Shown: positions 1 through 12,543, counted from the stretch's first letter. The stretch: DNA of 64,000 bases from a bacterium (GCA_030688365.1 JAUYIE010000003.1:30417-94416); one strand, 5' to 3'. Numbers and translations are program-made. The notes: a model not told the origin generated them from the sequence alone.

Positions 1-511
1 CAAGATAATTCTTTTTTGGATAATATTGCCCAAACATATACCCCTCTTCAACCTTGCTATGTTCAATAATATTGGTAACTAATTCGGAAATAGGATAGTA
101 CACTGCACTGCTAGCCTTGGACGTTCCCAGTACTTTTAATACCATATTTGAAAACAATGTCTCAAGACGGTCTCTCCCCGCCCCGGCACTCTTTTTTAAT
201 ATGCTGATAGGTACATACGTTTTATTACTTTGGCTCAAAGCCTCAAATCCTGATACGGAATCCACACCAGCAGGAAAATGTATACAATCAAAATATGACT
301 GCAATTTTGAAGAACTCCCAAAAACGTCACCACCTACCGATTTAAGGTATGCCACTAAGGGCAAAACAAAAAGCGGAGAGGCAAAGCTAACGCTCGACAA
401 ATCAAAGCATACCTTTTCACCATCCTTAATATCCTTGAAAGCTAAGTACAGTGGTCGCAATATATCGACCAATGAAGTTGTAACAAATTCAGGAACTTTT
501 ACCGTTTTCAT
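1..511 (-). CDS. Partial CDS, not in the ORF track because it runs off the window start. The N-terminal 170+ aa lie in the window and the C-terminus is beyond position 1. Hypothetical protein with a GHKL/anti-sigma-kinase-like N-box (ELVTNIIEHS) and an upstream STAS-like stretch (CFDLSSVSFASPLFVLPLVAYL). An alternative ATG sits at 620.
   Basis: I reverse-complemented and translated by hand. The minus-strand frame is open from about 620 to position 1 and reads MKTVKVPEFVTTSLVDILRPLYLAFKDIKDGEKVCFDLSSVSF...YYPISELVTNIIEHSKVEEGYMFGQYYPKKNYL. It is co-oriented with, and immediately downstream of, the RT and Zn-ribbon genes. Confidence 0.4.
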   Translation of the reverse strand, partial: MKTVKVPEFVTTSLVDILRPLYLAFKDIKDGEKVCFDLSSVSFASPLFVLPLVAYLKSVGGDVFGSSSKLQSYFDCIHFPAGVDSVSGFEALSQSNKTYVPISILKKSAGAGRDRLETLFSNMVLKVLGTSKASSAVYYPISELVTNIIEHSKVEEGYMFGQYYPKKNYL

Positions 512-660
512 ATACATACAGCTTATCAACGGCAAGAAACAAAAGCAAACAAAAAACCACTCATATAGAATGATTTCCTGTGGTGCTTTCGTCAGGAGAG
601 GTGGTGAACGCGTAAGCATTAACGACCAATCCAAAAAAAATTAACGTTATCCAATAAATT

Positions 661-1044
661 TTAATACTTCAGACCACAACATATTCTACACAAGGGTTGA
701 CTACTATAGTCTCGCGGATATGCCCTATAATATAGGCATACCGCCCTCCTATCACATTTGTTACAGATAAGGTAAGGTACATATCCTTTCTTCAAGTTAG
801 ACGGCACAAAATCCATCCTTTGCTCATACCAGTCCCGGAATCCATTATGGATAGCACCTAAAGATTTGAATTGATACCATACTCCAGCCTCAAACAATGC
901 TTTGATTCGTAACATTTCCCCAACACGATCAAATATAACATTTTCCTGCTCTATTTCAGCAAGATCCGATAAACAGGCATTAAGATAATCACCTGCCCTA
1001 ATGCTAGACCAATCTTTGATACTTCTATTGTTTGAGGTACGCAT
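661..1044 (-). CDS. Small Cys-rich protein with a putative C-terminal zinc ribbon (CNKCDRR...C...CRICC). Third gene of the HTH-RT operon.
   Basis: 127 aa ORF, 47 nt downstream of the RT stop on the same strand. It has a C-x2-C ... C-x2-C-C cysteine cluster and no recognisable family. Confidence 0.4.
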   Translation of the reverse strand: MRTSNNRSIKDWSSIRAGDYLNACLSDLAEIEQENVIFDRVGEMLRIKALFEAGVWYQFKSLGAIHNGFRDWYEQRMDFVPSNLKKGYVPYLICNKCDRRAVCLYYRAYPRDYSSQPLCRICCGLKY

Positions 1045-1091
1045 AATCTCTAGGAATCTCTAAGGATATAAGACTGAAGAGGGTATAGAAA

Positions 1092-2081
1092 TTAGGTAGT
1101 GGTATCGCTATTTATTTTTCCTATCTGTCGACCATACGCCCCATAAGATCGCAACTGATCATGTGGTTTCTTTTTATGATGACCTTTGGGTGAGACTTTC
1201 AAAGCTTTAATTATACCTGCCCTTTTTTTGATTGTTTTTCTCCCAAAAGATAGTGATTTACGATTCAGTTTCACGCCTAAGTGTTCTATACCCTCGCTAT
1301 AAGTCAAAATTTTGGTCTTTTCCATGTGTATTGGAAGAGGTTGATTGAGATCAAATGTCGCGAACAGGGCAATGATCTCATCTCTCAGGTGTTCCATAAG
1401 TTCATATGGAACCCGGCTCGCGGTAATCCCTATGTCATCTACAAACATAGCAACACGAGGATCATACCCCTTAAGCCTTCTCTGAACAAGCCAATTCATT
1501 CGCAAAAATACATCTAGATTACACCACACTGCCAACCTTGCAGAGGTAGCAAAACCTCGAGCCAAAACCTTGTTATCAGACAGTGACCCTTTGGCTCCCA
1601 CAGGAACACAACAAAAGTGTGCTAATAGATGAGCTAGCCTTTCCCCACACCCTGCCTTTGTATGAAAAAAGGTCTCTACTCTGGCGAGACCCACCTGGTC
1701 GTAAAAACGACGTATATCAAGAGCTAGGAGAGTTCGTTGACGTTTATACCCCAAAAGATATTGTGCTGCTACCAAATGACTTTTACCAGATACACCTCCA
1801 AAAATAAAAGGAGGGAGGCGTACATCGTGGGGTGAGAGTAATTTTTTATCCAAGAGGTATAGTAATTCTCCCAAAGGTTTACCCTTGGCACTGCGTACAA
1901 ATTTTCCTTCCTCTGCCTCAGAGGCGGTTGTATCGTGCCAATAGGTATCAAAATTATCCTTCACGTCATCTATAAAAGCCATTCGCTCATCAAAACTGTG
2001 CGACCTATCAGATAACCTCTTTGCAAGCTCATTCTTGCTTTGAAGAGCAATATTTGGATAACGAGACCTAGTGCTGGACAT
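1092..2081 (-). CDS. Stand-alone reverse transcriptase, 329 aa. It has an RT domain only, with no maturase, endonuclease or RNase H extension. Class undetermined; retron, Abi, DRT or DGR-like are all possible.
   Basis: RT motifs appear in canonical order. Motif 1-2 region: PPFIFGGVSGKSHLVAAQYLLG. Motif A: LLALDIRRFYDQV, with the catalytic Asp in an hDhxxFYDxV context. Degenerate motif B': CVPVGAKGSLSDNKVLARGFA. Motif C: AMFVDDIGI (YxDD-type FVDD). Motifs D/E: LPIHMEKTKILTYSEGIEHLGVKL (EKTKI plus G-x-x-FLG-like). Confidence 0.75.
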   Translation of the reverse strand: MSSTRSRYPNIALQSKNELAKRLSDRSHSFDERMAFIDDVKDNFDTYWHDTTASEAEEGKFVRSAKGKPLGELLYLLDKKLLSPHDVRLPPFIFGGVSGKSHLVAAQYLLGYKRQRTLLALDIRRFYDQVGLARVETFFHTKAGCGERLAHLLAHFCCVPVGAKGSLSDNKVLARGFATSARLAVWCNLDVFLRMNWLVQRRLKGYDPRVAMFVDDIGITASRVPYELMEHLRDEIIALFATFDLNQPLPIHMEKTKILTYSEGIEHLGVKLNRKSLSFGRKTIKKRAGIIKALKVSPKGHHKKKPHDQLRSYGAYGRQIGKINSDTTT

Positions 2082-2400
2082 ATTTTCGCAAATTCTTTGC
2101 CTTGTTCTTCACAAGGTTGTCTTGGAGCTTTTCACCAATTGCAATAAGGCTCAGATCTAATTTAGAAAAGTTCCTTTTATCGTGGTTCTCATCAATAAAA
2201 AGAAAAGGCGTCACAGAATTTGGTCTCACGCCTAATCGTTCAGCAAGACGTAAAATAAAATTCTTTGATACATCCTTTTGCCCTGTTTCGATCATTGAAA
2301 CCAAAATAGTTGATACTCCCAGAACCGATGCAAATTCTTCTTGGGTAATATCTGCGGATTCACGTATCTTCTTAAGTAAGACGGGAAATGTGTACATCAA
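2068..2400 (-). CDS. XRE-family helix-turn-helix transcriptional regulator. Its 3' end overlaps the RT start by 14 nt.
   Basis: 110 aa with a classic XRE HTH (ITQEEFASVLGVSTILVSMIETGQKDVSKNFILRLAERLGV). It is the first gene of a minus-strand operon and overlaps the RT start codon. Confidence 0.7.
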   Translation of the reverse strand: MMYTFPVLLKKIRESADITQEEFASVLGVSTILVSMIETGQKDVSKNFILRLAERLGVRPNSVTPFLFIDENHDKRNFSKLDLSLIAIGEKLQDNLVKNKAKNLRKYVQH

Positions 2401-2698
2401 TTTATATGATTAAAGGGTAGCTACCAGAGTCGATCCAAAATAATGCAAATTATCTGTAGGATAATAAGCACTAGTTTTTTGATCATAGATAACTACCCTC
2501 ATATACGCATACGGAAGACACCCATAATGATAACTAGGATTGGTGAGTTGAGCCATAGAAATATAGTTAGGGTAAAACAATGGACTTAGTTCGACTTTCG
2601 CTATTATGGGACTACGCCTTTCCCTTTGCGGTTAATGGTTTCCAAAAGGTCTTCCGTGAATTCAACCCAATAACCGCAAAGGTAGTCAGGTAATCACT

Positions 2699-2775
2699 AA
2701 CAGCATACTGTATACAGTTAACTATTAGCACTAATAAATGCCTATAGCTTACTGCGTAGTGTATACAGCTAACGC
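2699..2775. promoter_or_regulatory. Pair of palindromic operator-like sites upstream of the HTH-RT operon. One is a perfect 12 bp palindrome ACTGTATACAGT followed by GTTAAC. A second TGTATACA core in GTGTATACAGCTAAC lies about 45 bp away.
   Basis: Read directly: catACTGTATACAGTtaac at about 2705-2722 and gtaGTGTATACAGctaac at about 2757-2773. These are short palindromes in the roughly 600 bp intergenic region, which is upstream of the XRE gene on the minus strand. Confidence 0.35.
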
Positions 2776-3016
2776 CAATACACCACAGTGGCCGGAATCT
2801 AAACCTTCTATTTCTAGAAGGGTGAGACAAGCAGATGCTCGTCAAATAATGGATAACATTTACTGCCGCAATATCTCATGGGATTTTGAAATGAACTCTT
2901 GAAACGTATTATACGTTTTGTATAAGTTTTCGTCAAGACACAGATATCCACAGCTGATGCGATCTCACATCCACCGACTTATAGACTGGCATTTTACAAA
3001 TAGCTATCCATACGAT

Positions 3017-3271
3017 TTACCTCTCATTACTATCTGTTGCGTCCTTACCACAATGCTCAAGCAAGGCACCAATCATCATACCAAACCCAGAGAATATAAG
3101 CACAAGTAAAAACGAGGCTGATAACTCATATGCAATAAACCACATAATACCAAAAAGCATAATCGGGAGAGTGAGATTTTCAGGTATCGGTTTTTTACCT
3201 TTTCTCTTCAGGTATGCATTAATAATAAAAATACTCAGTAAAGCAGGTGTGAGTAGAATAACTATTCCCAT
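3017..3271 (-). CDS. Small hydrophobic membrane protein, 84 aa with about 2 TM segments. Hypothetical.
   Basis: ORF with two hydrophobic stretches. Its stop lies about 14 nt from the start of the upstream gene. Confidence 0.35.
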   Translation of the reverse strand: MGIVILLTPALLSIFIINAYLKRKGKKPIPENLTLPIMLFGIMWFIAYELSASFLLVLIFSGFGMMIGALLEHCGKDATDSNER

Positions 3272-3284
3272 ATAATAAAATTGA

Positions 3285-3722
3285 CTACGGGGTAGACTTT
3301 TTTAGATCCGCTTTTACGGCTTTAAGTTCCTGCTCCTTTTCGAGGAAACCCTCTTTTATATTATAATCCGAGAATAAAATTTCATTTGTATAGTAATCCT
3401 TTAGAGTAATATCAAACGACAACTCATCACCTATTGATGTTTGAGTGAGTATGTAAACAATGCAACTTTGTCTTTTGGGGCTATAAAAGACTTCATTAAC
3501 AAATGAACGTCTTACTGTACTATTGCTGTCGTCCTTGTCTAGCTGTTTCTCTAAAATAGGCTTTATAGCTCCACATTCTTTAATTTTAGCCACAATCTCT
3601 TTTTCTCTATATAATCGTGGTTGGACAACAAGAAAATAATAAGCCGTGCATCCGGTAGCAAAGAGAAAGACGCAGAGAAATAAAAGTCTGAACCAATTAT
3701 ATCTCAAAAAATCCACAACCAT
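3285..3722 (-). CDS. Membrane-anchored hypothetical protein, 145 aa with an N-terminal TM helix.
   Basis: N-terminal hydrophobic segment LLFLCVFLFATGCTAYYFLVV. It sits 15 nt downstream of the secreted repeat protein gene on the same strand. Confidence 0.4.
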   Translation of the reverse strand: MVVDFLRYNWFRLLFLCVFLFATGCTAYYFLVVQPRLYREKEIVAKIKECGAIKPILEKQLDKDDSNSTVRRSFVNEVFYSPKRQSCIVYILTQTSIGDELSFDITLKDYYTNEILFSDYNIKEGFLEKEQELKAVKADLKKSTP

Positions 3723-3736
3723 AGATATTGTTATCC

Positions 3737-5293
3737 TTAATTACTTTTTGTAGCACATCTCACAACTAAATCGGGGCTCTCACTCTTTGCCGGTAATCCT
3801 AATGGAAAAATCACTGTATCATTTTGGTTGCTAGTAGCGAGCTTTATATCAATAATTGACAAACCCAGAGTATCCCCTATTTTCATCCCAGTAGGATCAA
3901 ACTTCACATTTAAATTAAATGGCCATGTCAGGCCGTTTTGACTTGGGACGGTAAATAATAATGTATCTCCATCGACCGACTGTTTATTGAACAAAATTCC
4001 CGGTATATTACCAGATATACCAGATGGTGACGTTGATATACTTAGATCAATGTCCGCAAGGTTGGCAGTACCCGCTTTTTTTAGAGTAACCGATTGCAAA
4101 GATAAACCAGTGAGTTGTTCATTATTCCCTACATTTAGCCGTAGTGTTGAAAATACAGCTTGGTTTGGCCAGACTTCATCCACAGCACCTGAAATGCCAC
4201 CATTAGGAGACGAGGTGTCTGTTAAGTTTAGCCCACAATGATTGTTTGCAGTTCCATAATTCCATGCATCATTGGTATCAAAGTGTGGAACTATTTTCCA
4301 CGTATGATTGATAGAGACAGAAAGTTGTTTAACGGTAGTATTCCAGTCTTTATCTGCACAAATGAGATAATAGATAAAATTTGGTATCTTTTCGTATCCA
4401 GTTTCTTGTAAAGCAAAGCTAGTACTACCATTAGGAAGTCTCCCAACGAAAGGAATTGAGATATCTTGAGTCTCAGTAGTGGCACACGTAATAGCATTCT
4501 TGGTCTCCCAGTTTAAGGTTAGAACGTCTCCTATACTAGCCGTCGCCTTGTCGGCTTCGAAACGAGTGATTTCAGGTTTTGTAGGTTGAGGGGGTAGCAC
4601 CACCTGTACTGGTGTTGGTTGAACAATTGGGGGAATCTGGGCTATAGGATCTGTGACAGGTCTTTTTGATGATGGAGGTATATTAACCGTCGTTGTTTCT
4701 TTTTGAGAAATAGATGCATCGTCTGTCAAATCTTTTGCAAAAAGGATTGGGGTGACCGATACAACGTCATTACTATCCACTTGAGGAGTTGATGATATTG
4801 CCCGGGGTTGTAAACCGTCAGATGACTTGACTATTTTATTAAGGTCAATATTTGATATACCCAAACCCATTCCTTTCATGATATTAAAAGCATCCTGAGG
4901 ACGTCCCAAAAAGTAAGCATATCCTGTTTTTGGTTCTACATAATACGCTTCGCCGGCTCTTTCTACTCGCAGAATAATTTTCCCAAGTAAACTATTACCT
5001 TTATTGCTTCGCATCATCCTAAAATCATTCTGATCTGGTGTAAACATAGATAAAATATCCTTTTCACTTATCCCAGTCCCTTGCTTGCGCATTACCTCAA
5101 ATGCGTCCGCTGGACGACCAAGGTAGTATCTTTGTTTATTTGTCGGGTTCACATACCAGGCTTCACCTTTTGACTCTACTTGGATCAAAATTTTACCGAT
5201 AACACTGGTAATATTTTCTGTATTTGAAATTGCAAAAACACTATACGGAAATATCAGTAAAAGACCAAGTAATATTGAAAACAAGTATTTCAT
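3737..5293 (-). CDS. Secreted protein of 518 aa with a signal peptide, two tandem repeats of about 50 aa at the N-terminus, and a C-terminal beta-rich domain. Hypothetical.
   Basis: Signal peptide MKYLFSILLGLLLIFPYSVFA. Internal repeats GKILIQVESKGEAWYVNPTNKQRYYLGRPADAFEVMRKQGTGISEKDI and GKIILRVERAGEAYYVEPKTGYAYFLGRPQDAFNIMKGMGLGISNIDL. It is followed by a Pro/Thr/Gln-rich linker. Confidence 0.6.
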   Translation of the reverse strand: MKYLFSILLGLLLIFPYSVFAISNTENITSVIGKILIQVESKGEAWYVNPTNKQRYYLGRPADAFEVMRKQGTGISEKDILSMFTPDQNDFRMMRSNKGNSLLGKIILRVERAGEAYYVEPKTGYAYFLGRPQDAFNIMKGMGLGISNIDLNKIVKSSDGLQPRAISSTPQVDSNDVVSVTPILFAKDLTDDASISQKETTTVNIPPSSKRPVTDPIAQIPPIVQPTPVQVVLPPQPTKPEITRFEADKATASIGDVLTLNWETKNAITCATTETQDISIPFVGRLPNGSTSFALQETGYEKIPNFIYYLICADKDWNTTVKQLSVSINHTWKIVPHFDTNDAWNYGTANNHCGLNLTDTSSPNGGISGAVDEVWPNQAVFSTLRLNVGNNEQLTGLSLQSVTLKKAGTANLADIDLSISTSPSGISGNIPGILFNKQSVDGDTLLFTVPSQNGLTWPFNLNVKFDPTGMKIGDTLGLSIIDIKLATSNQNDTVIFPLGLPAKSESPDLVVRCATKSN

Positions 5294-5614
5294 ACAATTT
5301 CCTAAATATTTAAAAGACTAAACAAAAAGCCCACCGCATGAGGTGATGACTTACGTCATCCATTGACCTTTCGATCAACGACCAGCAAAGGTAGCCCCCA
5401 TAACGATGGGTTCTCTATCTTTGCTGGCTTTGATGCCATGCCCGTTCTTTACAGAACCAGGTTTAGGCAATGATTCAATTGTACCTATACACTAGCAAAT
5501 TAACGGAAAAACATAAAGACCTACAGGAAAATGCTTATGCCCGCCACAACGTCTTTATATAATTCATGATAGGGGCTATTATCAATAATACTAAATGAAT
5601 ATGCCTAATGTTTT

Positions 5615-6337
5615 ATGAAAAAAGAACAAGTTGTAATAGAAAATTTCTACCGCTTTTCACATTTACTAGCAATCTTGGAAGGTAAAGATTGTACCAATGA
5701 CGCATTTCTTTATCTAATTCACAAATATTACCCCCAAGACACAGAATCTTATAAATTACATTTTTGTTCACTTGCAAGTATTTTAAAAAGGGAGAAACCA
5801 AACGACGAAGAGTATAAAAATAAAGAAAAGTCTGCGATAGTTATGATGCGCAAGTGGCCAGCCACTAAAATGATTAAATTTGATAAAGATATTGAAAATT
5901 TCTTAGAAAAAATGGGATTTGGGACGGAATGGCGAATGCCGATTATAACAGCAGTACTTACGGGCTTCTTCTATCCTCCCTCTCAAAACTACTATTTAGA
6001 AACAAGAAAAAGAAAAAGAAAAAAACTCAGTCTAGAAATAAATCAATATACCTCTAAAAATGATATCGAGGACGCGTGGCAAGAAATAGAACTTACACAA
6101 AAAGAATTATGGCCGTCTTTTGATAAAAGAAATTTTACAAAAAAATCACTAGGTGACTTACTCTTTTTTGCCAAAGCAAATGCTATCAAAAAAAATCTTA
6201 TTGAGAAAAATACAGACGAAACACCAATAAATGATTTTGATGTCGTGTTGTACTTATTTCCTGAGGCAGATCCGGAAACAGATAAAAAATATGTCAATTG
6301 GGTAAGAAAAAATCGTTATAAATATAAGACATTCTAA
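5615..6337 (+). CDS. Hypothetical protein of 240 aa in an AT-rich cargo region.
   Basis: ORF with Lys-rich composition in a visibly AT-rich segment at about 5300-7200. No family recognised. Confidence 0.4.
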   Translation: MKKEQVVIENFYRFSHLLAILEGKDCTNDAFLYLIHKYYPQDTESYKLHFCSLASILKREKPNDEEYKNKEKSAIVMMRKWPATKMIKFDKDIENFLEKMGFGTEWRMPIITAVLTGFFYPPSQNYYLETRKRKRKKLSLEINQYTSKNDIEDAWQEIELTQKELWPSFDKRNFTKKSLGDLLFFAKANAIKKNLIEKNTDETPINDFDVVLYLFPEADPETDKKYVNWVRKNRYKYKTF

Positions 6338-6419
6338 TTTTCTTTCCAAAAGTTGGAATGTGCCCAAATTGGGATCTGTTAAGCTCGTACTCATACTACG
6401 AGTTTTTTAAATTAACAGA

Positions 6420-6665
6420 ATGCATATGCAAAATGAATCACTTCATATAACAAAAGACCGTTTTGAAATCTATGTACTTTTAGCCACACACTGTGAGGTA
6501 GCTAATTATAACGCAAACAACAAGGGTCAAATATATTTTCACTTTAAAAATAAGAAAAAGTGCGAACAAGCGTTAAATATGCTTCTTTCAAAAAAGTTGA
6601 AGCTTTATGCTCATGAAATGATCGGGGCGATTAGAGATGCACAGGCGATCTTCAGGGCAAATTAA
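6420..6665 (+). CDS. Small hypothetical protein of 81 aa; island cargo.
   Basis: ORF only. AT-rich context. Confidence 0.25.
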   Translation: MHMQNESLHITKDRFEIYVLLATHCEVANYNANNKGQIYFHFKNKKKCEQALNMLLSKKLKLYAHEMIGAIRDAQAIFRAN

Positions 6666-6919
6666 TCATTTACTCCTTTAAAATCGTGATTTGCTCCCAA
6701 TCTAGGAATAAATCAGGGTTTTAAACCTTCGTCTCACCACACCTTATCGTAGGAAATCGCGGACGTTAAAAAGCGGTTGAAACGATCCAATACGGACACC
6801 TACCGTGGAAAATCGCAGTACCTTAATTAAACAAAAGATAGGAAAACCTATCTGTAAACTATCCTTACCTCAGATCATAGATATGTTGGTATATACAGAT
6901 TTTTTACGAAGGAAACGGC

Positions 6920-7123
6920 TTGGGGAGGTGGTTAACCTTAACATGTTCAGAATGTATGAGAGATTCAAAAAACAGTAGATTCAAAAAGACGATATCGACC
7001 ACCTTAGAAGATTTTGATTTTATAGAAAAAGAACGCCACAAAAAATCTAAGGCTGGAAAACTTGAAGAGATAATAGCGTACTATAAAAAATACAACCTTA
7101 AACTCGATACTAATAAAAAATAA
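6920..7123 (+). CDS. Small hypothetical protein of 67 aa; island cargo.
   Basis: ORF only. Confidence 0.2.
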   Translation: MGRWLTLTCSECMRDSKNSRFKKTISTTLEDFDFIEKERHKKSKAGKLEEIIAYYKKYNLKLDTNKK

Positions 7124-7185
7124 TGTTAAGGTAACATTGCCCGGAGATACTGATCTCCCCAGTGTACCTTAACAATTAAACAACG

Positions 7186-7401
7186 ATGTCAGACTTACGT
7201 ACTACAATGACCTGCCCAGAATTACTCACTCCCAAGGAGGTTATGAGTGTTCTTCGCATCTCCCCAGCGACCTTTTATCGGATCATTGAACAGCGCCTCA
7301 TCCCCTTCTACAAAGTAGGCCGAGGTCTCCGGTTTGATAAAAGCGATATTGTGGGATACTTAGCCGGTCAACGTATTAAGTCGGCGTCTGAATGGAAATG
7401 A
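7186..7401 (+). CDS. Excisionase/AlpA-like DNA-binding protein (HTH_17/MerR-like Xis family).
   Basis: 71 aa. The motif LLTPKEVMSVLRISPATFYRII...IPFYKVGRGLRFDKSDIVGYL is typical of phage excisionase/AlpA regulators. Its 3' end overlaps the integrase ORF. Confidence 0.6.
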   Translation: MSDLRTTMTCPELLTPKEVMSVLRISPATFYRIIEQRLIPFYKVGRGLRFDKSDIVGYLAGQRIKSASEWK

Positions 7402-8543
7402 ATATGAGTGCACGTAAATTACATGGCTCATGGTGGGTTGATTTCCACTATGAAAGAAAACGACATCGCATCCGAAGCCCTGAAAACAGTAAGGTGGGGG
7501 CGACAGCATACGAGTCAATACTTCGACAACGTCTTGTCCGAGGCGAGCCTCTCATGTCAAAAAATCAACCTACCATACCAACCCTCAAAGAGTTCGCTCG
7601 ACAATGGTTTGAAACGTATGTCGTGACCAACAATAAGCCGTCTGAACAGCGAAATAAAAGAATACATCTTGCACGTCATTTATTGCCTTTTTTTGGAAAA
7701 CTCAGATTAGATGAAATTACTCGAGCGCATATTGAACAGTACAAAACGCACAAAATTGGCGAAGGACTGGCTCCCAAATCCGTAAACAACCATCTCGGAA
7801 TACTTAGCAAGTGCCTCCGATGTGCCGTTGAGTGGGAGGTAATAGACAAAACGCCACGCATGGGGACATTACGAGTCCCTCCGCCACCCTTTGACTTCTT
7901 GTCGCCTCGCGAAAGCCAAATGCTTCTTGAGGCCGCAACCGACTATCCGTGGGGTACTATGCTTCTCACTGCACTGCGAACAGGCATGAGGCTAGGAGAA
8001 CTGCTCGCGCTTGATTGGAACGATATAGATCTTGAACGGCGGATCATCGCCGTGCGACACTCACGAGTAGATGGAATCACAGGGAGTCCGAAAAATAACA
8101 AAGTGCGATATGTGCCGATATCATCGGAACTCCTTACCGCGTTCTACGCCATCCCGACTCGCACAGGGTATGTATTTGTCGCCTCGCACGGGAAAGCAGT
8201 GACAAAAAACATTGCCGCGTGGCACCTGAACAAATACTGCAAGCAAAGCAACCTCCGTCATATAGGATGGCATACGCTCCGTCATACCTTCGCATCACAG
8301 CTCGCCTCCTCCGGCGTTCCCTTGCGCATGGTTCAAGAATTTCTTGGACACTCAACACTTCAAATGACCGTGAGGTACGCGCACCTTGCGCCATCCTCAC
8401 TTGCCGACACAATCGACATACTTGATATGCTCCCAAATAGACAACCTGAAACATTTTGGGCACTATCTGGGCAACAAGGACAAAAAAATCTCGTTTTGCC
8501 TTCCGGCACGAGTGATAACCACAGTAGATATGCTGATATCTAA
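7392..8543 (+). mobile_element. int: Tyrosine site-specific integrase, P4-like with an N-terminal arm-binding region. It ends 35 bp from the 3' end of tRNA-Arg.
   Basis: C-terminal catalytic region HTLRHTFASQLASSGVPLRMVQEFLGHSTLQMTVRYAHL (R...HxxR...Y). Further upstream are LRTGMRLGELLALDWNDID (box I Arg) and an N-terminal SAM-like domain. It lies adjacent to a tRNA gene. Confidence 0.85.
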
Positions 8544-8577
8544 AACAAAAAACCATCCAATAAAGGATGATTTCCTG

Positions 8578-8652
8578 TGGTGCTCTCGCCAGGAGTCGAA
8601 CCTGGATTGCAAGATCCGCAATCTTGCGTCCTATCCATTGAACGACGAGAGC
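8578..8652 (-). tRNA. tRNA-Arg, anticodon read as GCG.
   Basis: Hand-folded cloverleaf on the minus strand: GCTCTCG-TC-GTTC/AATGGATA/GGAC-G-CAAGA/TTGCGGA/TCTTG-CAAT-CCAGG/TTCGACT/CCTGG-CGAGAGC-A-CCA. It has a GTTCGA T-loop and an encoded CCA. Confidence 0.75.
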
Positions 8653-8675
8653 ATAGTTACAATATATAAATCTGA

Positions 8676-9158
8676 TTATAATCGAAGTCTGCGAGTGAGC
8701 CAATCACCTAATGGTTCGTTGACATACTCGTTGCTTTCTTCAAGATAATCACAAAGAAAATCTCGCACTTCTCGCACTTCATGTTCGCGATGTGTATGCA
8801 ATGGAATCTTTACGACATGTTTCATTCCCCGTTGTGTCTGCACATACAACACATGCCCCACTTCTGTCTCTATGATCCAAAATGACTCAATATCAGTAAA
8901 TGGGTACCGTTGTTTTCCTAATGAAATACCCTCGGGTGAGAGAATGCACTTGATTTGAACCGGCGTCTGAAGAGAATGCGCAAACAATATGATCGTTACC
9001 ATGATAATCAAAAGTGGAAACGTAAAATTTTGTTGAGAAACACTCCACACCACCAAAAGACCTACTACAAGACCCGCAATAACATACCAAGATGTACTGC
9101 GATGAGGTATTTCATATTCAGGAAATGACCACTCTAACGTTGTATGATGTTTTTGCAT
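8676..9158 (-). CDS. Membrane protein of 160 aa with 2 TM segments, sitting between two tRNA genes. Hypothetical.
   Basis: Hydrophobic segments YVIAGLVVGLLVVWSV and LLIIMVTIILFA. No motif recognised. Confidence 0.4.
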   Translation of the reverse strand: MQKHHTTLEWSFPEYEIPHRSTSWYVIAGLVVGLLVVWSVSQQNFTFPLLIIMVTIILFAHSLQTPVQIKCILSPEGISLGKQRYPFTDIESFWIIETEVGHVLYVQTQRGMKHVVKIPLHTHREHEVREVRDFLCDYLEESNEYVNEPLGDWLTRRLRL

Positions 9159-9174
9159 GGGAAATCGTTTATTA

Positions 9175-9266
9175 TGGCGGAGAGGGAGAGATTCGAACTC
9201 TCGAGGAGCTTTTACACCCCCAACACCTTAGCAGGGTGCCGCTTTAAACCACTCAGCCACCTCTCC
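9175..9266 (-). tRNA. tRNA-Ser (GCU), class II with a long variable arm, 92 nt.
   Basis: Minus strand: GGAGAGG-TG-GCTGAGTGGTTTAAAGCG-GCACC/CTGCTAA/GGTGT-long variable arm-GAGAGTTCGAATCTCTC-CCTCTCC-G-CCA. The anticodon loop is CU-GCU-AA. Confidence 0.8.
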
Positions 9267-9306
9267 ACACCCTTGCACATAACGATACCATTCACTGATA
9301 ATATCG

Positions 9307-10041
9307 TCAACGGACAGGCGTATGGCGAGGTGGTATACCATGCGCGAATACAAGGGCGGAAATCTTCTCTGCACCAGCCATGCGCAATGCACGTGCTGCT
9401 GATCTGAGTGTAGCACCAGTTGTGGTCACATCATCAACTAAAATAATTCGTTTAGGTATATCACGAGTACACACCACAGAATAAACGTCTTCCATATTTT
9501 CCCATCGTGCAGACACGCCCAACGTTGCTTGTGGGGCACGTGCTACTGTGCGTATCAACAATCGTGAATATATTGCTCTTTGACATACCTGCGCTATACC
9601 TTGTGCTAGACATAGAGATTGATTAAATCCTCTCTCTTTGTAACGTATTTTATCCAGTGGTATCGGCACAATAGCATCCGTATCGCTATATTCATCAATC
9701 ATACGTGAACCCAAAATGATACCAAGATCCATGCCCAATGCTTCTCTATACCCATACTTTAATGTATGTATCATATGAGCGATGTGCACATCATCATAGC
9801 GATATCCTATCCATAGATCATCTAAACCCCAAAGTCTTGAGCAACTCTCACAAATATTTGATCGTTCGCTTGTCCCACGACACCACGCGCACACGTTTTG
9901 AGGCCATGACGTCAGAGTATAGACACATTGGCTACACAAAAAAGCGCCTTCTGTATTACAGACGACGCAAAGACGCGGAAAAAGAATATCCCAAAATACA
10001 TCTCCAACACGATGTAGCGTATTGCTCAAAAATCGTTGCAT
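9307..10041 (-). CDS. comFC: ComF-family (ComFC) phosphoribosyltransferase-domain competence protein.
   Basis: N-terminal double Cys pairs (CVVCNTEGAFLCSQC ... CAWC...CESC). C-terminal PRTase motif ILVDDVTTTGATL. Its start overlaps the stop of the upstream gene by 1 nt. Confidence 0.75.
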   Translation of the reverse strand: MQRFLSNTLHRVGDVFWDILFPRLCVVCNTEGAFLCSQCVYTLTSWPQNVCAWCRGTSERSNICESCSRLWGLDDLWIGYRYDDVHIAHMIHTLKYGYREALGMDLGIILGSRMIDEYSDTDAIVPIPLDKIRYKERGFNQSLCLAQGIAQVCQRAIYSRLLIRTVARAPQATLGVSARWENMEDVYSVVCTRDIPKRIILVDDVTTTGATLRSAARALRMAGAEKISALVFAHGIPPRHTPVR

Positions 10042-10652
10042 TATTCTTTCCAGTCCACCGAATCAACGAGCCACACGCTCCCTTCTTTCATCATCTGTAT
10101 GGTCGCATCTTGATTATACACCTTACTATTTGTCACCGTGCCAACTGATTCCTTTCTTTGTACTGTCATCGTGATTTGGGCATCAATATCATTCATGCTT
10201 GCAACATGATACGAAAGAACAGTGGTGGTCGTACCTGCATAAATGGGTTGATACTCTACACTCTTCACTTCAGCAATCTTGTCTGTTGCCCATGTTTTCA
10301 ACGACTGTGTCATAAATGGTAACAATATCTCCAGATTTTTTCCGTTTCCTTGATTAGAAAAACTTCCCAACCGCTCAACAAACGGCACCGCTATAGCAAT
10401 CAAATCCGATTCTGCAGGTTCTAGCGGTGTCGCCGGTACTCGCGCCGCAGGATTGTCTGTCGTCGACGTAACAGGAGTTGTATCTGTACGTACAGTAGTG
10501 GTATCTTGCGGGGTTACTTGTGTTTGTTCATCTTCAGGCAGTGGCGTCTGTGTGTTATCGGGCCTCATAAAAATAATTGCACCGACAATCGCGAGTACCA
10601 CAACAATACCACCCCCAATGAGAATAAGTTTTGTCCGAGTTGTCATAATCAT
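10041..10652 (-). CDS. Membrane-anchored protein of 203 aa with an N-terminal TM helix and a Thr/Pro-rich linker. Hypothetical component of the T4SS-like operon.
   Basis: TM segment LILIGGGIVVVLAIVGAIIF. Low-complexity TPQDTTTVRTDTTPVTSTT. Translationally coupled to comFC. Confidence 0.45.
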   Translation of the reverse strand: MIMTTRTKLILIGGGIVVVLAIVGAIIFMRPDNTQTPLPEDEQTQVTPQDTTTVRTDTTPVTSTTDNPAARVPATPLEPAESDLIAIAVPFVERLGSFSNQGNGKNLEILLPFMTQSLKTWATDKIAEVKSVEYQPIYAGTTTTVLSYHVASMNDIDAQITMTVQRKESVGTVTNSKVYNQDATIQMMKEGSVWLVDSVDWKE

Positions 10653-10665
10653 ATAATAAATATTA

Positions 10666-12543
10666 TTATTCTAATCCTTTTTCTTCTGCAAATTCTTCCT
10701 TTGCTTCCTCAATCTCCAAAAGCTGGCGCGGGTCAGTCGTAATCAGCTGATCTTCAGCATACGATGCCACTACTTTGATAGCCGCATGTTTCTGTCCAGC
10801 GAAGAAAATACCTTCCCCGGGTGCTGATTCAAGCAATAGATATTTCTCTCCTTCTGTAAGTAAAAATGTTTCCTGAATCAAATCTATGGACGCAGTAGAT
10901 TGTTTTAACAAAAGTTGAATAGCCGAGTTGGTCAAAATCGCCTTGCCGTATTGAGAACCAAGAAAATCGTTTACATCTTGAGTGATGGTGGTCAATCCCA
11001 AATAATATTTACGACATCGCTTTGCAAGCGCGTACACAAATTTTGCCGAATCCTCGTGTTGCATCAACCACCACGCCTCATCAATAACCAATATACGTTT
11101 TTTCATTTCCGAGCGCACGACGTTCCAGATATAGTTTACCACCGTATAGATGGCAATCGGTCTCAATTCGTCTTCCAAATCACGAACAGAAAATACAACC
11201 AATTGATTCTTTGTATCTACGTTCGTCGGTTTATTAAACAATCCAGCGAACGTGCCTTCAGTATATTTTTTTAGCTTCGCAACCAGTTCTCCCCCGCCTT
11301 CCATACCTTCCAACACATCTTGAAAATCGCTCATTGTTGGAGATTCTACGCCTTTGCTGAGATCCACATCTGGTGTGATATCTTTCTTTGCGTATGTTTC
11401 AATAAGAGCGCGATCAACAATAGAATCTTCTTGTTGAGTAAATGACCCTAACATGAGACGGAATAATCCTTTTAACATAATAACTGCACTTCGGATTGTA
11501 TCTGCTGTGGAGGTGGTATCGCCTACAGGTCGTGGTAAGTCAAACGGATTGATACGTGCAGTTGAAGAAAGTGCGATATTGATATATGTTCCACCAACTG
11601 CTTCGCATAGATGTTGATACTCGCGCTCCGGATCAATCACGATTACGTCCGTCCCCAACATCATTGAACGCAGAATTTCCAGTTTGATTGCGTAGGACTT
11701 GCCGGCGCCAGATGTCGCAAACACCACAGAGTTTGCATTCGGCATTGAAAAACGATCAAAAATAATCAAGCTATTATTATGTCGATTGATGCCGTACATT
11801 ACCCCGTTATCTGATGTTACATCCGAAGACACAAATGGAAATGATGCGGCCGCAGGCGACGTATTCATATTAAAAGGAATCTGAAGTTCATCAGAACCTA
11901 CTGGTACAGTAGAATTGTATCCTTGTTCCGCCTGATATAATACTCGTTTTGTATATACCATCTTTGCCGCATACAACGCCTCCACATCCTCCGTCAATTT
12001 ATTCAATTCATCCAGTGTTGATCCATACAACGTCATATACATACCGACAGAAAAAAAATGTTCAGTGCCAATCGTCAGGTCGTCACGCAATTTTTCGACG
12101 TCAGACATAGCACTTTCGGCCATTGGATCACGTGCCTTACCTTGTTCCTGTGCGGTAGAAATCTCCGCTTCCAAGCGTCCTACTTTCTCTTTGAGCTGTT
12201 TCAAAACGTATCGAGCGGGCAATGGTGAAAAATGCAATGCAATATCAAACGTAGCACTGTAATTAATGATATCTGCAAACCAACCGACGTTTAAATACCG
12301 AGGATACCCGACAACAAAAACAGTACGAGCATACGCGCTTCCAATACGTACATAATTTGACTGTACTTCCAGCGCGGACGGAGCGATTAAGTCACGGATA
12401 GTCAAAATCCCCTTCCTATATCTCAATTCTTCTTCAATGGCTTGCTTTTCATCTTTCACCTGCGCAGCATTGAGAGCTCGTTTCTCCTCTTCTATGGGAG
12501 AACGTCCTTTTTCGGAGATAGTTTGAATTGGTTGAAATGCCAT
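10666..12543 (-). CDS. virB4: VirB4/TrbE/CagE-family type IV secretion ATPase, C-terminal ATPase portion of 625 aa.
   Basis: Walker A: VVFATSGAGKSYAIK. Walker B: RILVIDEAWWLMQHED (the DEAW signature of VirB4). Also a downstream TTITQ motif. Confidence 0.75.
   Translation of the reverse strand: MAFQPIQTISEKGRSPIEEEKRALNAAQVKDEKQAIEEELRYRKGILTIRDLIAPSALEVQSNYVRIGSAYARTVFVVGYPRYLNVGWFADIINYSATFDIALHFSPLPARYVLKQLKEKVGRLEAEISTAQEQGKARDPMAESAMSDVEKLRDDLTIGTEHFFSVGMYMTLYGSTLDELNKLTEDVEALYAAKMVYTKRVLYQAEQGYNSTVPVGSDELQIPFNMNTSPAAASFPFVSSDVTSDNGVMYGINRHNNSLIIFDRFSMPNANSVVFATSGAGKSYAIKLEILRSMMLGTDVIVIDPEREYQHLCEAVGGTYINIALSSTARINPFDLPRPVGDTTSTADTIRSAVIMLKGLFRLMLGSFTQQEDSIVDRALIETYAKKDITPDVDLSKGVESPTMSDFQDVLEGMEGGGELVAKLKKYTEGTFAGLFNKPTNVDTKNQLVVFSVRDLEDELRPIAIYTVVNYIWNVVRSEMKKRILVIDEAWWLMQHEDSAKFVYALAKRCRKYYLGLTTITQDVNDFLGSQYGKAILTNSAIQLLLKQSTASIDLIQETFLLTEGEKYLLLESAPGEGIFFAGQKHAAIKVVASYAEDQLITTDPRQLLEIEEAKEEFAEEKGLE

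Follow-up and report, generated by a model that had tools for sequence, protein, structure and literature searches.

The 64,000-nucleotide stretch of bacterial DNA analysed in this study (GCA_030688365.1 JAUYIE010000003.1:30417-94416, in the following called the window) carries close to its beginning a reverse transcriptase (RT) locus which is very probably a Type VI retron, transported as cargo on an integrative island of about 8 kb at a tRNA-Arg gene of a bacterium belonging to the Candidate Phyla Radiation (CPR, Patescibacteria). The proposed functional unit lies on the minus strand and comprises a promoter, a structured RNA of about 500 nt containing an open reading frame (ORF) of 21 amino acids (aa) for the small effector peptide SP, a gene for a helix-turn-helix (HTH) protein and the RT gene, in this order.

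The initial annotation of the window had proposed a four-gene operon consisting of HTH regulator, RT, a Zn-ribbon-like protein and a partial GHKL-like ATPase gene. The corresponding minus-strand ORFs exist (HTH 2068-2400, RT 1092-2081, 127-aa ORF 661-1044 and an ORF exiting the window from 511), and the annotation was right in general terms: an island carries a compact stand-alone RT of the retron or defence kind together with its accessory partner. The four genes do not form one unit, because the third and the fourth are unlinked to the RT by synteny, which the annotation itself had named as the finding that would speak against its proposal. The accessory parts upstream of the HTH gene, i.e. 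the structured RNA and the small peptide ORF, had been overlooked, though the search for RNA and effector suggested there was successful. What appeared as an unknown four-gene RT system can now be recognised as a probable Type VI retron with its real parts located. Since CPR members (Levybacteria, Woykebacteria) are already present in the published Type VI tree, the system is of an already described kind, and the understanding of what Type VI retrons are is unchanged. New at the level of this clade are the size of the CPR group, the SP in an alternative frame, the overlapping ORF that is open but not conserved, and the clear covariation of the helices locking the SP start.

The reverse transcriptase and its HTH partner

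The RT gene (1092-2081, minus strand) encodes a protein of 329 aa. Compared with the PADLOC models, as the initial annotation had recommended, the protein matched RT_VI best (1.7e-22, 78 bits, model positions 2-276 of 279), followed by RT_IV (38 bits, 2.6e-10) and ahead of the UG and group II models. All of 21 aligned homologues matched RT_VI, too, the top one with 2.6e-34, which beats every other family (RT_IV 8.2e-19). Pfam detected RVT_1 (1.4e-9) as the only domain, in agreement with the earlier statement that the RT has no extra domains. The motifs FVDD and EKTKI were found as quoted there, and the catalytic FVDD is intact. In the alignment of the RT family the residues D122, D215, D216, H102 and G269 are invariant. 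Signatures of retron RTs are NAXXH in region X and VTG in region Y, with H and G, respectively, being most conserved. H102, located between RT2 and RT3 (GKSH/GKNH), and G269, located in RT7 (HLG), occupy positions that were assigned by eye and do not show the literal NAXXH and VTG.

Searches against further collections gave weaker signals. In NCBIfam the RT matched retron and group II models, all far under the cutoff. The leading PDB matches were the RTs of the retrons Ec83 and Ec86 with E values of about 0.002-0.004, and nothing was obtained in the PDB profile search at 1e-3. A plasmid collection searched by tblastn with the RT yielded no match at 1e-8. At the level of hidden Markov models (HMMs), we assign the RT to the Type VI clade (clade 3 of Mestre 2020), a placement suggested by these profile scores.

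At least 326 relatives of the RT were found at E <= 0.001. The best 120 of them are about 45-57% identical to it, and those bearing a name are mostly metagenome-assembled genomes (MAGs) of CPR/Patescibacteria. The clade is abundant in this group, compared to two CPR entries in the published Type VI tree, which are located there in a heterogeneous "Large" lineage. For comparative analyses we used 49 related RT loci from species-representative genomes, nearly all of them CPR/Patescibacteria MAGs.

The HTH gene (2068-2397, minus strand) overlaps the start of the RT gene by 14 nt and encodes a Cro/C1-type protein (Pfam HTH_3 1.3e-11, PADLOC HTH_VI 1.5e-12). Its ORF comprises 110 aa with the TTG start at 2400 and 109 aa with the ATG at 2397, of which the ATG is the more likely start. 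A homologue of this gene is found directly upstream of the RT or overlapping it in 44 of the 49 loci; the others are masked or have no upstream sequence, with the exception of L046. There, in a Saccharibacteria genome from sheep gut (5772-6987 of the locus), SP-like nested ORFs are located directly before the RT and an HTH gene is missing, representing a natural HTH-less variant. Downstream of the RT no gene family is conserved among the 49 loci: the largest cluster covers 4 loci and lies more than 1.7 kb off on the opposite strand.

Type VI retrons are defined in the literature by the pairing of HTH and RT (PMC7736814). The locus, whose four-gene combination had not been recognised as a described type, thus shows the signature of this type, and both the length of the HTH protein and its position upstream of or overlapping the RT agree with the Type VI description (HTH about 91-110 aa). 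By homology to the Type VI partner, the HTH protein would act as antitoxin and as repressor of reverse transcription. We also considered that the missing Shine-Dalgarno (SD) motifs before HTH and RT indicate translational coupling. This idea is weakened, since SD motifs are rarely used anywhere in this genome: of the 33 window ORFs of at least 200 aa, 4 have an SD-like core within 17 nt upstream of their first ATG, against a random background of about 13%. These values suggest that initiation in this host is largely SD-independent.

The structured RNA and the SP reading frame

A stretch of 622 nt separates the HTH gene from the next gene upstream, and it folds far more stably than shuffled sequences (z = -4.8). 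The search for a structured RNA upstream of the HTH gene, as proposed earlier, revealed a conserved folded RNA of about 500 nt at approximately 2405-2900 (minus strand; its ends were deduced from the elements described below), which resembles the hyRNA of known Type VI retrons. It consists of 5' hairpins, a variable middle segment, a long hairpin called domain C and the SP ORF lying within long-range helices. All elements found by comparison of the loci are present in the window. Rfam gave nothing over this RNA and no retron msr, neither in 1-6000 with E values up to 10 nor in ten related loci at gathering thresholds.

A promoter-like sequence TTGACG-17-TATAAT (2908-2936, minus strand), which matches the consensus at 11 of 12 positions, is a candidate for the start of this RNA on the basis of the consensus match. 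A conserved block resembling -35 and -10 elements is located just 5' of the first hairpin in related loci as well. The two 5' hairpins (2826-2843 and 2804-2821, minus strand) are conserved in position and their stems covary among the loci (AGATGC/GCATCT, AGACGC/GCGTCT, AGGTAC/GTACCT). The variable middle segment that follows is a candidate template for reverse transcription.

Domain C (2603-2694, minus strand) is formed in the window by the inverted repeats I1 (19 nt) and I5 (13 nt), with an outer helix GACTAC (2682-2687)/GTAGTC (2610-2615) and an inner helix 2671-2681/2624-2634. Among the loci it comprises an inner helix of 11 and an outer helix of 8 pairs; every pair varies, and 18 of the 19 show compensatory changes. 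Just 3' of domain C, many loci share an A-rich and apparently unpaired motif ending with GGTCG or AGTCG (AAAGGTCG; in the window CGAAAGTCGAAC, 2589-2600, minus strand), which could be a candidate site for protein binding or priming.

The loop of domain C contains the 5' arm of a long-range helix of the pseudoknot type (ACGGAAGAC, 2649-2657, minus strand). Its 3' arm (GTCTTCCGT, 2511-2519, minus strand) is located just 5' of the SP start region. In the window the two arms form a perfect helix of 9 bp (inverted repeat I8), and the helix has 8-10 bp among the loci. Since the MAFFT alignment (A3) misplaced the 5' arm in some rows, we counted this helix on an alignment of our own with slid partners as controls. 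In 39 loci 87% of the alignment cells were canonical, compared to 27-51% with slid partners, and compensatory variants include CGGAACGC/GCGTTCCG, CGTAATGC/GCATTACG and CGGATGCC/GGCATCCG.

A second helix, the closing stem, directly encloses the SP ORF. Its 5' side (2478-2499, minus strand) consists of a G-rich, SD-like arm (2490-2499) and the SP start region (2478-2487); its 3' side (2405-2423, minus strand) follows directly after the SP stop and directly precedes the HTH start. We call the G-rich arm SD-like and not a ribosome-binding site (RBS), because the genome hardly uses SD motifs. In the window the stem is formed by the inverted repeats I6 and I7 (AGGGTAG/CTACCCT), and the SP start codon is likewise part of the helix (2478-2487 with 2405-2414). 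Across the loci the G-rich arm is located 8-11 nt before the SP ATG. RNAalifold predicted 9 pairs, 8 of them with compensatory changes, and 90% of the cells were paired in 38 loci; examples of variants are GGGGTGATTA/TAATCACCCC in L002 and GGGGTGGCTA/TAGCCACCCC in L015. For the three helices taken together, 85% of the cells were paired in the 38 loci, compared to 31-52% with slid partners. Compensatory changes occur in 27 of 28 pairs, and the observed values were reached by none of 500 shuffles. The unusually clear covariation makes these helices a clean comparative model for the locking of the SP start site.

The SP mini-ORF within these helices (2421-2486, minus strand) encodes 21 aa (MIKKLVLIILQIICIILDRLW), predicted to form a hydrophobic and amphipathic helix and proposed as the toxic effector. 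Each of the 40 comparable loci contains a homologous ORF of 20-31 aa, which starts with ATG in 38 cases and with GTG or TTG in the remaining two. The family follows the pattern M(K/I)xRILRIIxxIIRILxDIxx and has a mean Kyte-Doolittle hydropathy of 1.35. The toxins of type I toxin-antitoxin systems (Hok, Fst, TisB, Ibs) are peptides of about 20-30 aa that combine a basic N-terminus with a hydrophobic helix and whose translation is blocked by RNA structure at the start site. SP shares with them the short length, the basic N-terminus, the hydrophobicity and the proposed control of translation by RNA, but this is a resemblance only, and the type I toxins are controlled by an antisense RNA instead of a retron RNA with RT and HTH.

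Gene callers annotate a different frame in this region, namely an ORF of 48 aa (2410-2556, minus strand, called on the identical public contig L001), which lies in the -1 frame relative to SP. Counterparts of 47-60 aa starting with ATG exist in nearly every locus, and their stop precedes the HTH gene by 4-15 nt. In the 75 nt leading up to the SP ATG, 37 of 39 loci keep this frame open, compared to 2 and 5 of 39 for the other two frames. In the overlap with SP, however, the third codon position of the 48-aa frame is the most conserved (entropy 1.07 vs 1.50 and 1.35; 503, 373 and 220 pairwise differences at positions 1, 2 and 3). This inverted pattern indicates coding in the +1 frame, that is SP. 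The SP frame itself exhibits codon-position entropies of 1.54/1.05/1.73 and a T at position 2 in 64% of its codons. The mean pairwise BLOSUM62 score per site is +1.06 for SP vs -0.18 for the overlapping annotated frame, and the N-terminal part of the 48-aa ORF has no codon-position signature (315/287/292 differences). These substitution patterns identify the SP mini-ORF, and not the annotated 48-aa ORF, as the frame under selection at the protein level. The effector would be reduced to a bare amphipathic helix, which gene callers miss by annotating the wrong frame.

The 48-aa ORF remains open among the loci without conservation of its product and may serve as a translated leader. A programmed frameshift fusing the long ORF to the SP frame was rejected, because in most loci the SP frame contains stops 1-5 codons before its ATG, GTG or TTG start. 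We tentatively consider a dual-frame translational switch throughout this CPR-wide Type VI clade, for which the case is nearly as good as the case against it. An effector of 20-31 aa in the +1 frame would be nested in a longer ORF which is kept open without conservation of its product and which public annotation takes for the gene. Perhaps the longer ORF acts as a leader: ribosomes translating it would open the long-range helix as well as the closing stem and arrive at the HTH start, 4-15 nt past its stop. If true, this switch would be a feature absent from the descriptions of Retron-Vpa2 and Retron-Sen3.

Mode of action, described retrons and alternative explanations

Type VI retrons are described as a structured RNA with an embedded small toxic SP, followed by HTH and RT (bioRxiv 10.1101/2025.10.22.683967; bioRxiv 10.64898/2026.04.27.721009). 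Further published features are an inverted repeat around SP, a sequestered start region and an HTH protein of 91-110 aa (PMC7736814; bioRxiv 10.1101/2025.10.22.683967; bioRxiv 10.64898/2026.04.27.721009). Synthesis of single-stranded DNA (ssDNA), toxicity of SP, the trigger and a role in defence would apply to our locus by analogy to Retron-Vpa2 and Retron-Sen3. By homology with these two retrons, a complex of RT, HTH and RNA would be expected. At rest, the stem would lock the SP start region, and the toxin would additionally be neutralised or repressed via HTH. A phage infection might be sensed via phage recombination proteins or via inhibition of a host nuclease, leading to ssDNA made by the RT and/or to the loss of HTH control. 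The RNA would then refold and SP would be made, an amphipathic peptide that might damage the cell, killing or arresting it, in the sense of an abortive infection.

Retron-Vpa2 of Vibrio parahaemolyticus (Zhang et al., bioRxiv 10.1101/2025.10.22.683967) has the same order of RNA/SP, HTH and RT, with HTH as the partner of the RT. Its transcript of about 470-500 nt likewise combines a structured RNA with the coding sequence of a small hydrophobic toxin, and the SP start is buried in the structure. In contrast, its SP has 55 aa, whereas the SPs of our loci have 20-31 aa (21 in the window), lack the N-terminal part and are nested in the +1 frame. Moreover, its RT contains YADD instead of FVDD, and our locus belongs to a CPR host and is known from its sequence alone. 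Retron-Sen3/cl2075 (García-Rodríguez et al., bioRxiv 10.64898/2026.04.27.721009) shows an inverted repeat around SP, too, with IR1/IR2 comparable to the closing stem 2478-2499/2405-2423. It shares conserved 5' stem-loops, a variable internal segment as candidate template, an HTH gene overlapping the RT and an SP with an amphipathic helix. The Retron-Sen3 SP, however, has 79 aa with a helical bundle, and the RT subclade is found in Proteobacteria. The covariation of IR1-IR2 in cl2075 is below significance, whereas the flanking stem covaries abundantly in our loci. Our SP resembles the hydrophobic or amphipathic helix that carries the toxicity of SP in Vpa2 and Sen3, minus the N-terminal parts. 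Retron-Cle1 (Mestre-729, Candidatus Levybacteria) and the Woykebacteria entry, compared by description only, are listed under Type VI with CPR hosts as well, but no SP or hyRNA is described for them.

Several points weigh against the assignment to Type VI. The RT_VI score of 78 bits is modest, and judging from such profile scores the RT clade could be a sister group of Type VI. With 20-31 aa, SP is far shorter than the described SPs (55-79 aa), to which it is likened by its position and its hydrophobic helix. Neither a branching G nor an a1/a2 pair was identified in the RNA, and a crude search did not find the conserved 7-nt direct repeats of the Vpa2 type, the best repeat being common to 6 of 39 loci. 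"RBS sequestration" may be the wrong description of the closing stem, as the genome hardly uses SD motifs. Only 47 nt separate the RT from the co-oriented 127-aa ORF that follows it, and no terminator is predicted between them, so that co-transcription is possible at this locus. Finally, Retron-Cle1, the sole CPR Type VI retron tested so far (RT and ncRNA only), produced no detectable ssDNA.

Among the alternatives to the Type VI retron with the 21-aa SP, the same retron with the annotated 48-aa ORF (2410-2556) as effector and an untranslated nested ORF is unlikely, even if its length is close to the 55 aa of the Vpa2 SP, 40 of 42 loci contain such an open frame starting with ATG and gene callers choose it. 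Its codon usage in the window is gene-like (0.29 vs -0.05 for the mini-ORF), and a good AAGGAG precedes its ATG in a Saccharibacteria subclade. Against it stand the inverted codon-position pattern, the negative similarity of its products between loci and the N-terminal half without codon-position signature described above. Furthermore, L041 and L050 retain the mini-ORF without a long ORF, and in each locus the mini-ORF has a start codon (ATG, GTG or TTG) at the corresponding position. That SP, HTH and RT mainly serve as an addiction module of toxin-antitoxin type stabilising the island, and not primarily as phage defence, is quite unlikely. The locus is cargo of an integrative element, tRNA genes are found near several related loci, and in Retron-Sen3 HTH-SP is reported to be a toxin-antitoxin pair independent of RT and ncRNA (bioRxiv 10.64898/2026.04.27.721009). 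But the intact RT active site (D122, D215 and D216 invariant) and the elaborate RNA are strictly retained, which points to more than the function of a simple toxin-antitoxin pair. Both experimentally studied Type VI retrons defend against phages, and addiction and defence are not mutually exclusive.

The original idea of a new defence retroelement in which HTH, RT, Zn-ribbon protein and GHKL/STAS ATPase act together is highly improbable. The ORFs are co-oriented and close together, no terminator is predicted between RT and 127-aa ORF, and a weak match (1.3e-11) links the HATPase protein to the N-terminal part of a single PADLOC DrmA model. However, none of the 49 RT loci contains a relative of the 127-aa protein, of the HATPase or of the STAS-like protein next to it, and no gene family recurs on the downstream side of the RT. 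Neither RT nor HTH was seen near the relatives of the 127-aa protein, HATPase homologues are paired with a STAS-like gene among housekeeping genes without an RT, and an att repeat formed by the displaced 3' end of the tRNA-Arg puts the fourth gene outside the island. An RT of another class, i.e. a group II intron, a diversity-generating retroelement (DGR), an abortive infection (Abi) RT or a DRT/UG RT, has next to no probability. The matches to group_II_RT_mat (19 bits), RT_UG17 (22 bits) and a CRISPR-associated RT (30 bits) are all far under the 78 bits of RT_VI, and the NCBIfam cutoff for group_II_RT_mat is 300 bits. In addition, the RT lacks maturase and endonuclease domains, and Rfam matched no intron in 1-6000 at E values up to 10. 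The pair of template and variable repeats (TR/VR) typical of a DGR, which the initial annotation had suggested looking for, was not found in 1-11000, the sole direct repeats there being the att sites.

Neighbouring genes and the integrative island

The island extends from about 600 to 8547 and holds the gene of the 127-aa protein, the retron, three uncharacterised genes, a LOOT RNA and an integrase. The integrase-bounded island of the initial annotation was confirmed by a tyrosine integrase, a tRNA-Arg and att repeats. The integrase (7392-8543, plus strand) carries Phage_integrase Pfam families in the gene call on contig L001. This public contig is identical in sequence, with the window position being 8636 minus the L001 position. 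The tRNA-Arg(gcg) detected by ARAGORN (8578-8652, minus strand) with the attR-type repeat marks, together with the integrase (7392-8652), one boundary of the island. The attL-type repeat at the other boundary (549-600) consists of the displaced 3' end of the tRNA-Arg and some 35 nt of the sequence following it; it separates the 127-aa ORF from the HATPase gene. The att repeats have a length of 48-52 nt, and the direct repeat of 48 nt is 81% identical to 8548-8595. A terminator-like hairpin at 549-581 falls within this repeat, and a second tRNA (Ser, gct) is located at 9175-9266. Retrons apparently travel on tRNA-targeting islands also in these minimal-genome bacteria.

The Cys-rich 127-aa protein (661-1044, minus strand) first seemed to be an orphan, because a word-index search found only the protein itself. 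This idea was dropped, because a full HMMER scan gave 55 relatives of 101-230 aa. As most of these are 126-182 aa long, the copy in the window may be short at its C-terminus. No relative occurs in the 49 RT loci, and the contexts of the relatives contained no RT or HTH nearby. We read the protein as the product of a mobile-element gene and not as a part of the retron. In L056 (6001-8347) a relative adjoins a serine recombinase of 533 aa and a tRNA-Gln. In L056, L057 and L059 the relative is preceded by a conserved block consisting of a 236-283-aa gene, a DUF5659 gene, a 50-67-aa gene and a 426-479-aa gene.

The fourth gene, which leaves the window, could be completed with the public contig, as the initial annotation had asked for the sequence upstream of position 1. 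It encodes 282 aa and matches HATPase_c exactly at the Pfam gathering score (26.4 bits). The motif ELVTNIIEHS is present as quoted earlier and the proposed GHKL-like ATPase was confirmed, whereas the STAS-like segment postulated within the protein had no family match. Instead, the protein of 111 aa encoded next downstream gave a weak STAS match (E 0.005). The two genes form a CPR gene pair (window 1-511, minus strand; L001 8125-9339) resembling a kinase/antagonist pair of partner-switching systems. The HATPase has at least 219 relatives in a large CPR family. In every context examined a gene of 111-132 aa follows, being STAS-like wherever Pfam hits were recorded, and the neighbours include H+-PPase, trigger factor, RNase Y and HU, with no RT nearby. 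Relatives of HATPase or STAS-like protein were found in 0 of the 49 RT loci. Because the HATPase gene starts at 511, beyond the attL repeat at 549-600 that separates it from the 127-aa ORF, it is outside the island and belongs to the chromosomal backbone, not to the retron.

Two further observations concern the remaining cargo. The Rfam family LOOT (RF03000) was matched at full length at 5345-5469 (minus strand) with 85.9 bits, compared to a gathering score of 46.4, directly upstream of the gene at 3737-5293. This gene encodes a secreted-looking protein of 518 aa, whose N-terminal approximately 150 aa are 60-64% identical to the N-terminus of a chromosomal SNase-domain protein of 390 aa. The latter is encoded just outside the window (L001 9538-10710), and the two proteins have a repeated domain in common (GKILLQVESKGEAWYVNP...GRPADAF).

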